From a virus (lineage: Duplodnaviria; Heunggongvirae; Uroviricota; Caudoviricetes), in IMG/VR virus record IMGVR_UViG_3300019376_000001: a stretch of 64,000 bases of DNA; one strand, written 5' to 3'. Made by a program: the position numbers and the translations under genes. Below the pieces are notes generated by a model that was not told the origin of the DNA, did not search any database, and was given only the letters and a program-made list of their open reading frames with translations. Positions within the stretch are counted from its first letter, which is position 1; the number at the start of each line of letters is the position of its first letter. Shown piece by piece: positions 34,083 to 35,012 of the stretch.

Positions 34083-35012
34083 TTAGTCCTCCTCTGGCTG
34101 AATTAGGTCTTCAATATATGCACGACCTTCACCTTTGAAAATCGGAATTTCGGTGTCAATTACCCATTCGTAATACTGACGAGCAATTTCACGAACTTCG
34201 GGTTCACCAAATTCTTTTTCGATAGTTTTTCGCTCAATCTCCAGTTTACCGGGCTTGCGCACAACGCAAGTTCCTCTCTTCTGGTGAGTTGGAAAATCGT
34301 TCCAGTTAATGCCCTTCTCTTCGTGAAGCATATCCTGAATCATGTTGCAGCTCTTACCCTGCAGTTCTCTGTGAGAGAAGTTAGCCTGACCAACCATTTG
34401 AATACTGTTACGAGTTGCATCTAACTGGCGCCAGTAAATAAGGTTAGTTACTTCTTCTCTTGGGATATTGAATGCTCGAGCATCGAACATCGCAGTTCCC
34501 ATCTTTTGCTGATATAGAGTCCATCTCTTATCCCAGAAGTCAGAACCCAATTCAAGGTCTGCGCGAGTCAGTCCATACTCTCTCTCCAACTCGTCATAAT
34601 CCCACTCTTCACCGTAGTGGAAATGAGTCATCATAGTGTGAATATGACCAGTGAAAATCTGGTTAAACGCCATGGTAGCCATGGACGCAGAAATAGAACA
34701 CAGCTTCTGAACCTCATAGTCGAACCATGCAGAGCTGTCGAGATGCTTATAGTCTACAAGGATGAGAGTAATCTCATCAGACTGGGTATAGCCGAGTACA
34801 CAACCCTGAATGTGTTCGCAAAGGTATTTAGTTGTCTCCTGCATAGACTTAATCAAAATTTCATCAAAAGGTCGTTTGAAACCTCTGGTGAAAGTGTGAA
34901 AAGCCTTACCGTCAATTCTAATCGCCACAGGAGTACGGCGCATTAGTCGAGTTTTTGGAACACCCTCGTAGAATTCTTTCATACGAGTGCCTAAGTCGTC
35001 ATGTACTGGCAT
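34083..35012 (-). CDS. Thg1-like protein (tRNA-His guanylyltransferase family 3'-5' polymerase)
   Basis: 309 aa; VAIRIDGKAFHTFT and GYTQSDEITLIL match Thg1 motifs (RLDGRNFHRF, AYGQSDEYSFVF). Confidence 0.75.
   Translation of the reverse strand: MPVHDDLGTRMKEFYEGVPKTRLMRRTPVAIRIDGKAFHTFTRGFKRPFDEILIKSMQETTKYLCEHIQGCVLGYTQSDEITLILVDYKHLDSSAWFDYEVQKLCSISASMATMAFNQIFTGHIHTMMTHFHYGEEWDYDELEREYGLTRADLELGSDFWDKRWTLYQQKMGTAMFDARAFNIPREEVTNLIYWRQLDATRNSIQMVGQANFSHRELQGKSCNMIQDMLHEEKGINWNDFPTHQKRGTCVVRKPGKLEIERKTIEKEFGEPEVREIARQYYEWVIDTEIPIFKGEGRAYIEDLIQPEED

Follow-up and report, generated by a model that had tools for sequence, protein, structure and literature searches.

A bacterial-type Thg1-like protein with two hypervariable cassettes encoded by a large gut phage

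A single stretch of 64,000 nucleotides (the window) from the Caudoviricetes record IMGVR_UViG_3300019376_000001 was examined in the present study, with a focus on the Thg1-like protein (TLP) that it encodes among genes for RNA repair, NAD+ metabolism and tRNAs (Table 1). An initial annotation had placed a 309-residue open reading frame (ORF) with two Thg1 hallmark motifs at this locus, and the position, minus strand, ATG start and both motifs were recovered exactly. The start codon is well supported; the Shine-Dalgarno sequence ahead of it overlaps the TAA stop codon (35025-35023) of the upstream YqeY gene. Against the Pfam Thg1 profile (PF04446), by which the initial annotation had proposed to check the assignment, the ORF scored 100.8 bits (E=7e-29; profile positions 3-130 of 130; curated cut-off 29.2 bits), and it matched PHROG 4717, ‘tRNA-His guanylyltransferase’, with E=3.4e-88. 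In a sequence search of solved structures the TLP of Bacillus thuringiensis (BtTLP; 4KGK/4KGM) was the best match by far (E=4e-56), followed by the TLP of Methanosarcina acetivorans (MaTLP; 3e-10) and by Thg1 from yeast (7e-10), Candida (1e-8) and human (6e-6). The Pfam Thg1C profile gave 21.9 bits (curated cut-off 26.3 bits), and residues 173-304 align with the C-terminal halves of BtTLP and MaTLP, the EIPxFK motif included. The identity of the ORF as a bona fide bacterial-type TLP enzyme is certain for practical purposes.

Table 1 Genes, motifs and RNA features of the window. Coordinates are those of the window
Feature	Position	Strand	Evidence and remarks
TLP coding sequence	34083..35012	-	309 aa, ATG start; ORF, Pfam Thg1, PHROG 4717, PDB 4kgk, AlphaFold2 model with Foldseek
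Shine-Dalgarno AAGGAGG	35018..35024	-	Read from the sequence; 5-nt spacer to the TLP ATG; overlaps the YqeY stop codon
TLP motif 1, VAIRIDGKAFHTFT	34887..34928	-	Residues 29-42; R32 and metal-binding D34, aligned to BtTLP R28/D30
TLP motif 2, GYTQSDEITLIL	34758..34793	-	Residues 74-85; S78, D79, E80, aligned to BtTLP S74/D75/E76
Hypervariable region 1 (HVR1)	34497..34652	-	Residues 121-172; ~52-aa helical insertion absent from BtTLP and MaTLP; BtTLP alignment gap and model
Hypervariable region 2 (HVR2)	34167..34253	-	Residues 254-282; tip and arms of a long beta-hairpin; aligned to MaTLP R198-R215 (HMMER, 5axk)
YqeY/GatB-tail-like protein	35023..35514	-	Immediately upstream of TLP; Pfam YqeY 57.3 bits; PHROG 1460
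RNA ligase	39056..40489	-	PHROG 968, E=1.5e-63; weak Pfam matches; N-terminal PHA02142 OB-fold and RNA_ligase domain
RNase T/DEDD-type 3'-5' exonuclease	40489..41397	-	Pfam RNase_T 73.4 bits
Metallophosphoesterase MPE-A	43178..44101	-	Pfam Metallophos
RlaP-like Pol-beta nucleotidyltransferase	44279..45202	-	Pfam RlaP weak, 16.8 bits; PHROG 388, E=8.6e-19
Pnk-type P-loop kinase	23304..23810	-	Pfam AAA_33 67.4 bits; PHROG 505 polynucleotide kinase, E=5.7e-25
Two metallophosphoesterases flanking the Pnk-type kinase	22724-23365, 24156-24866		Metallophos matches
TROVE/vWA-like ‘RNA-binding protein’	47767-49326		
SIR2	35474-36244	-	
NADAR	36856-37266	-	
PncA-like isochorismatase	30079-30651	-	
PRPP-synthetase-like protein	29123-29896	-	
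NAMPT	26276-27748	-	
NAD synthase (NadE)	24980-25771	-	
YAcAr SLOG protein	45477-45851		
Major vault protein (MVP) homologue	30749-33241	-	830 aa
Band-7/flotillin	20877-22409		
NAD-dependent phage DNA ligase	7620-9566		
Thymidylate synthase	5110-5982	-	
ORF with GIY-YIG homing-endonuclease domain	5994-6944	-	Domain C-terminal
tRNA gene array	50384..63747	-	35 ARAGORN / 36 Rfam matches
tRNA-His(GUG)	55782..55859	-	ARAGORN body 55782-55858; G-1 encoded at 55859, C73, CCA encoded
117-nt tRNA-like gene	55090-55206	-	Rfam 38 bits, missed by ARAGORN
tRNA-Asn	61013-61085		No encoded CCA

An AlphaFold2 (AF2) monomer model of the TLP, built on 30 family members, reached a pLDDT of 82.2 and a pTM of 0.82. 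Its top 32 Foldseek matches in the PDB were all Thg1 or TLP chains (E down to 2e-20), the best being 4kgm, with target-normalised TM-scores of 0.81 for BtTLP, 0.75-0.79 for MaTLP and 0.59-0.68 for eukaryotic Thg1. Residue roles were taken from the BtTLP and MaTLP papers and transferred through HMMER alignments, and conservation was counted across 220 unique TLP relatives. The functional residues mapped in this way (E16, R32, D34, S78, D79, E80, K103, R179, R201, N202 and M206) are each kept in 216-220 of the 220, with individual counts of 217 for R32 and R201, 218 for M206, 219 for D34 and D79, and 220 for S78, E80 and N202. The catalytic carboxylates, on which the initial annotation let its proposal hinge, are retained, D34, D79 and E80 aligning with D30, D75 and E76 of BtTLP. 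R201 and N202 correspond to MaTLP R136 and N137, which hold the 5' nucleotide and C72, while M206 corresponds to BtTLP M158, a position occupied by Asn in eukaryotic Thg1. The TLP-type motif DATRNSIQM is the counterpart of BtTLP DASKNSISM, and the eukaryotic HINNLYN motif is absent. Near-invariance of the functional residues across the relatives points to purifying selection on catalysis, and the phage TLP appears catalytically intact as judged from its sequence. A repair-type TLP, which the initial annotation had preferred to a G-1-adding Thg1, is likewise favoured by the closeness of BtTLP, by DATRNSIQM with M206, by the modelled fold and by the G-1 already encoded in the phage tRNA-His.

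New in this analysis are two hypervariable regions within the otherwise conserved enzyme, one of which is the hairpin that grips the tRNA elbow in MaTLP. In the AF2 model HVR1 prolongs a helix (residues 97-133) that is followed by helices 136-146 and 158-170, and the strands of the HVR2 hairpin span 248-264 and 272-286. The MaTLP hairpin, R198-R215, is flexible, binds the tRNA elbow and sets the stop of 5' extension (PMC4820378); its sequence is reported to be hypervariable among MaTLP relatives as well, and an elbow hairpin is present in most members of the TLP family. Across the 220 sequences identity to the window TLP was 83% in the core, 15% in HVR1 and 15% in HVR2, with lengths ranging from 8 to 60 aa for HVR1 and from 2 to 36 aa for HVR2. 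The two regions are exchanged independently among proteins with cores at least 91% identical: fractional identities to the window TLP for core, HVR1 and HVR2 were 0.97, 0.11 and 0.93 in P0009, 0.96, 0.70 and 0.00 in P0004, and 0.97, 0.06 and 0.07 in P0041. Because they swap independently in near-identical proteins, the sequence comparison indicates cassette swapping by recombination. The variability could stem from a loosening of constraint, from retuning of the substrate range or from evasion of host factors.

Gene linkage was examined in 12-kb loci around the TLP in viral and metagenomic relatives, and around homologues in cellular genomes. Relatives 51-61% identical to the window TLP stand in tight operons with RNA-processing genes. 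At one locus (L102) PARG, TLP and RNA ligase form an operon with gaps of 2 and 13 nt, at another (L100) the TLP lies directly beside an RNA ligase, both ligases having the PHA02142 plus RNA_ligase architecture of the phage’s own, and at a third (L101) the TLP is followed by NADAR and then by a short ligase-like fragment. In four Clostridia genomes (L111, L114, L117 and L118) the TLP overlaps a downstream metallophosphoesterase homologous to MPE-A of the window. A homologue of MPE-A was found within 6 kb of the TLP at 14 of the 33 genome loci, and RlaP-metallophosphoesterase pairs lie within 2 kb of it at L112, L113 and L119. By our account, the window contains homologues of the PARG, NADAR, ligase, phosphoesterase and RlaP partners seen beside the TLPs of these relatives. 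The tight TLP-ligase and TLP-phosphoesterase operons, which name concrete partner enzymes, provide the strongest evidence of this analysis that the lineage of this TLP would act in RNA end repair, and they reproduce and extend the linkage of Thg1 with Pnk, Macro and RNA ligase reported in 2010 (PMC2904730). Among cultured phages, Pnk lies ~1 kb from the TLP in mycobacteriophage Hannaconda, and a prohibitin gene lies near it in Fusobacterium phage Fnu1.

With moderate confidence we propose that the phage TLP most likely rebuilds damaged tRNA 5' ends, a repair role being the best-supported reading. By homology to BtTLP and MaTLP, a dimer of dimers would bind a tRNA with a short 5' end, activate its 5'-monophosphate with ATP or GTP or take a 5'-triphosphate directly, and add nucleotides in the 3'-5' direction using the 3' strand of the acceptor stem as template and two metal ions on D34 and D79. 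Addition would stop once the tRNA elbow is out of reach of the partner subunit's long beta-hairpin (HVR2), and the addition of G-1 opposite C73 of tRNA-His would be a special case of the same templated reaction. Repair of 5'-truncated tRNAs in vitro has been reported for BtTLP (PMC3061083; PMC3701042). In the phage, the TLP would be one of several tools that keep tRNAs in working order while the host is infected; the dispersed RNA-repair and NAD+ counter-defence set to which it would belong also comprises the RNA ligase, the Pnk-type kinase, the metallophosphoesterases, RlaP, RNase T, NADAR, SIR2 and the NAD+ salvage genes. The substrate, timing and counter-defence role of the TLP are what we infer. 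Counter-defence repair, as read into the locus by the initial annotation, is a reasonable but pre-existing hypothesis: anti-defence RNA repair was put forward for phage Thg1 in 2010 (PMC2904730), and a 2021 survey of jumbo phages includes Thg1 in the RNA-repair arsenals of phages as the enzyme that restores 5' ends (PMC7824862).

Several points weigh against a repair role. The window TLP shares no operon with the ligase or the kinase, which lie 4.0 kb and 10.3 kb away, and its direct neighbours in the window lineage are NAD+-related genes and YqeY, with no end-healing enzymes among them. At 79 of the 85 viral and metagenomic loci, with TLPs 59-67% identical, other genes surround the TLP, and these vary from locus to locus. 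Phosphoesterases gave 22 hits within 12 kb of the TLP in the 85 viral loci, by our estimate near chance for ~170-kb phages with three such genes. The ATP-positioning lysine (K44 of yeast ScThg1, K43 of BtTLP) is replaced by arginine in the phage TLP (R47), as in 68 of the 220 relatives, 147 having lysine; since the K43A substitution in BtTLP slows ATP-dependent activation and leaves GTP-dependent activation unaffected (PMC3701042), R47 reads as a conservative nuance and not as a loss of function. According to a 2024 paper, the functions of TLPs from bacteria and archaea ‘remain to be demonstrated’ (PMC11404450). No experiment on a phage TLP turned up in the literature searched, nor was a host defence nuclease trimming tRNA 5' nucleotides identified in this analysis.

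The initial annotation had further suggested a complete tRNA end-healing system from the proximity of the TLP to an RNA ligase, a Pnk-like kinase and the tRNA genes. These statements on context are mostly borne out. Both genes are present (PHROG 968 and 505), and together with the three metallophosphoesterases and the RlaP-like and RNase T-like genes of the window they make such a system plausible; the repair-type genes are, however, scattered over about 25 kb, and only YqeY consistently adjoins the TLP in close relatives. Viral phosphoesterase co-occurrence was discounted as evidence for repair, being at about chance level, and only the overlapping pairs in cellular genomes were counted.

The gene order of the window is kept in few close relatives only (L001-L006, L092 and L093), and clustering of the four ORFs on either side of the TLP at 84 loci found no neighbour family in more than 21 of them. 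YqeY was rejected as a family-wide TLP partner: a profile search placed it within 6 kb of the TLP at 6 of 89 loci, all of the window’s own lineage except L045, where it is non-adjacent, 4 kb downstream. It also occurs in the genome contigs L092 and L093, and adjoins the TLP only in L003, L004/L005 and L093, so that its linkage to the TLP is a lineage-specific hypothesis only. A role of the YqeY-like protein as a tRNA-binding partner of the TLP is possible. A more speculative and rather doubtful extension would treat the hypervariable cassettes as an arms-race or specificity interface, through which RNA choice and the extent of rebuilding are retuned or host blockers escaped, with YqeY as an accessory tRNA-binding subunit, especially where the hairpin is nearly deleted.

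Some cellular TLPs lie in defence-island-like surroundings. In a Hungatella metagenome-assembled genome (L098, 5458-6810) the TLP has an N-terminal extension of ~180 aa with no Pfam match and adjoins a GmrSD-type restriction enzyme, and in Blautia intestinihominis (L120, 93-3142) 31 nt separate it from an upstream 238-aa ORF, itself preceded by McrBC. The TLP as a component of a defence system was rejected, with no PADLOC match.

Databases label the TLP family tRNA-His guanylyltransferase, and the enzyme might accordingly serve mainly to restore or add G-1 opposite C73 on phage and/or host tRNA-His, for example after RNase P cleavage at +1 or loss of G-1, and so sustain histidine charging. TLPs are able to add G-1 opposite C73 in vitro, and tRNA-His is bound by MaTLP in a second mode that depends on the anticodon (PMC4820378). 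The MaTLP residues at the anticodon site, N179 and R188, have their counterparts in N236 and K245 of the phage TLP, which are kept in 209 and 212 of the 220 relatives, respectively. A tRNA-His of the phage's own is also encoded, and its acceptor stem contains two G:U pairs. The gene reads ...gatat/G/GTGGATG...CGTTCAC/C/CCA, with the G-1 noted by the initial annotation encoded at 55859 opposite C73, and its TAT leader motif lies one base further upstream than in other tRNAs, which places G-1 inside the expected mature tRNA. With G-1:C73 encoded and the leader shifted by one base, G-1 addition is unneeded for maturation, and the leader register points to normal retention of G-1. BtTLP-type enzymes, moreover, favour 5'-truncated tRNAs over full-length tRNA-His (PMC3701042), and the operon partners in relatives (RNA ligase, phosphoesterase and RlaP) point to general end repair. 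We regard a primary role in tRNA-His upkeep as an unlikely but live alternative.

The remainder of the tRNA array bears on a third possibility, that the TLP matures the phage’s own tRNAs with defective or overlapping 5' ends by a reaction like 5'-editing in protist mitochondria. The array is large, as the initial annotation held, with slightly fewer genes than its figure of ~37, and begins 15 kb from the TLP. Several of its 35-36 genes abut with zero spacer, and it includes one aberrant 117-nt tRNA-like gene, as such maturation might require. All 35 ARAGORN tRNAs, however, have an intact 7-bp acceptor stem with no mismatch at positions 1-3 apart from a single 1:72 mismatch, the initiator-like C1/U72, and none of the genes overlap; TLP-carrying phages also differ in tRNA content, and TLP homologues occur on bacterial chromosomes. 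Editing of the phage’s own tRNAs was thus largely refuted by the intact stems and the lack of gene overlap, and we consider it very improbable.

Only tRNA-Asn lacks an encoded CCA. About 20 tRNA genes are directly preceded by ...(A/T)TAT at positions -3 to -1, presumably a common processing signal, and another four begin right behind the CCA of the preceding tRNA. The 117-nt tRNA-like gene has a canonical acceptor stem, D-arm and T-arm, discriminator A, an encoded CCA and the TAT leader, but its outer anticodon-stem pairs enclose 55 nt where 11 would be usual. An intron-bearing tRNA, a decoy and a partner RNA are all conceivable identities. No counterpart emerged from two exact-pattern scans, and nine related tRNA-array loci gave no long tRNA-like match. 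The tRNA arrays of related phages contain ROOL RNA (272-277 bits) and tmRNA (L127, 7353-8000; L128, 7734-8381; L129, 9715-10055), neither of which is present in the part of the array visible in the window.

The genes flanking the TLP raise a further alternative. Upstream lie YqeY, SIR2, a formate/nitrite-transporter-like protein and NADAR, and downstream two small ORFs, the MVP homologue and an NAD+ salvage block (PncA, PRPP-synthetase-like protein, NAMPT and NadE). The NAD+ and ADP-ribose set on the two sides looks complete (24980-30651 and 35474-37266); the YAcAr SLOG protein is counted with it, and the DNA ligase of the phage depends on NAD. The set is consistent with a function in countering NAD+-depleting defences. 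The TLP might act on other RNA 5' ends, upstream of or instead of the ligase, for example on ends from which Macro, PARG or NADAR enzymes had removed an ADP-ribose, an NAD cap or an adenylyl group, or on those of structured RNAs other than tRNA. Its position between SIR2/NADAR and the salvage block would fit, as would the ADP-ribose and NAD genes that adjoin the TLP in many relatives (PARG in L102, NADAR in L101, PncA in L004/L005, L030, L059 and L074), a possible Macro-like orf167 homologue beside it in L042, L054 and L090, and the Macro-Thg1 linkage observed in 2010 (PMC2904730). Some TLPs extend plain RNA duplexes, and the substrate of DdiTLP4 is unknown (PMC11404450). On the other side, BtTLP, which among characterised enzymes is the closest relative, acts efficiently on truncated tRNA and poorly on simple duplexes (PMC11404450), the tRNA-elbow hairpin kept by most family members argues against substrates other than tRNA, and the proximity of NAD+ genes could reflect a shared counter-defence island. 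A role on such other ends appears to us a live but improbable alternative, and repair of tRNA 5' ends is retained as the preferred reading.

Two small ORFs separate the TLP from the downstream MVP homologue, which matches the Pfam profiles MVP_shoulder (93.8 bits) and Vault_3 (32.1 bits), and of which residues 323-778 align to eukaryotic MVP, from rat and human (E=1e-15). It belongs to no PHROG family and was matched in three GenBank phage records only, unannotated ‘huge phage’ genomes from metagenomes, at 38.6-39.5% identity. Together with the TROVE/vWA-like, SIR2, NADAR, Band-7/flotillin and NAD+ salvage genes it looks like a vault-like and NAD gene set in a phage, which may be more novel than the TLP.

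The gene is carried by a large gut phage, uncultivated and with a genome of roughly 170-190 kb. Nearly all window genes lie on the minus strand, and include a DnaB-like helicase, Sak4, thymidylate synthase, an NAD-dependent DNA ligase, topoisomerase II subunits, endolysins, a sigma-70 factor and the tRNA array. The thymidylate synthase gene is directly preceded by the GIY-YIG homing-endonuclease ORF, a layout typical of mobile elements. DNA near-identical to the TLP region was not found in GenBank phages, and the phage is therefore uncultivated or undeposited. Close TLP relatives (63-95% identity) are plentiful in metagenomes, often on contigs of 150-190 kb, and relatives occur on at least 545 IMG/VR viral contigs; 160 GenBank phage records contain homologues at 24-53% identity, for which tRNA-His guanylyltransferase is the predominant annotation. 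Nearly all of the closest cellular homologues (49-64%) come from gut Clostridia or Lachnospiraceae, including isolates of Robinsoniella, Blautia and a Clostridiaceae strain. These homologues and the strong Shine-Dalgarno sequence suggest that the host is probably a Bacillota, a gut Clostridia bacterium of Lachnospiraceae type.

Phage Thg1/TLP genes are not new as a kind and are routinely annotated, and the novelty implied by the initial annotation was overstated. The TLP gene of the window alone adds little, and cultured phages with homologues offer better experimental systems. Phage copies among repair and NAD+ genes, along with the Clostridia operons, strengthen the view that these reverse (3'-5') RNA polymerases would repair RNA ends damaged in conflict between phage and host. 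The independently swapped cassettes provide a handle on substrate recognition, one of them measuring acceptor-stem length in the archaeal enzyme.

Among known systems, the heal-and-seal pathway of the T4 type (Pnkp and Rnl1) combines a polynucleotide 5'-kinase, a 3'-phosphatase and an RNA ligase; the predicted kinase, three metallophosphoesterases and RNA ligase of the window belong to other families and are dispersed over 23304-44101. Phage tRNA-His guanylyltransferases of the same family (PHROG 4717) occur in Bacillus phages of the Bastille group, Fusobacterium phage Fnu1, Pseudomonas phage 201phi2-1, mycobacteriophages of the genus Omegavirus and Lak phages. No GenBank phage homologue exceeds 53% identity and their neighbourhoods differ, while those of Bacillus phages, at ~240 aa, are too short for HVR1. 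Eukaryotic Thg1 (yeast and human; PDB 3OTB, 5XOX and 3WBZ) shares the palm fold and three carboxylates (D29/D76/E77), and is specific for tRNA-His, adding an untemplated G-1 opposite A73; it is 17-20% identical, and differs in the HINNLYN motif and in an ATP-activation Asn where the phage TLP has Met. MaTLP (PDB 5AXK-5AXN, a TLP-tRNA complex) has the same fold, the EIPxFK motif, the equivalents of R201 and N202, and a hairpin aligning onto HVR2, at 22% identity. Its hairpin comprises ~18 residues, in contrast to the two modelled strands of 15-17 residues in the phage TLP, which also lacks the 9-residue insertion that follows the NSI motif in MaTLP. BtTLP is the closest match in both sequence (query residues 5-120 and 173-253) and structure: its residues E12, R28, D30, S74, D75, E76, R131, N154 and M158 correspond to E16, R32, D34, S78, D79, E80, R179, N202 and M206, and the motif DA(S/T)(K/R)NSI(S/Q)M is common to both proteins. 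At ~35% identity by structural alignment, the phage enzyme departs from BtTLP in having the ~52 aa of HVR1, a much longer HVR2 hairpin and R47 in place of K43.

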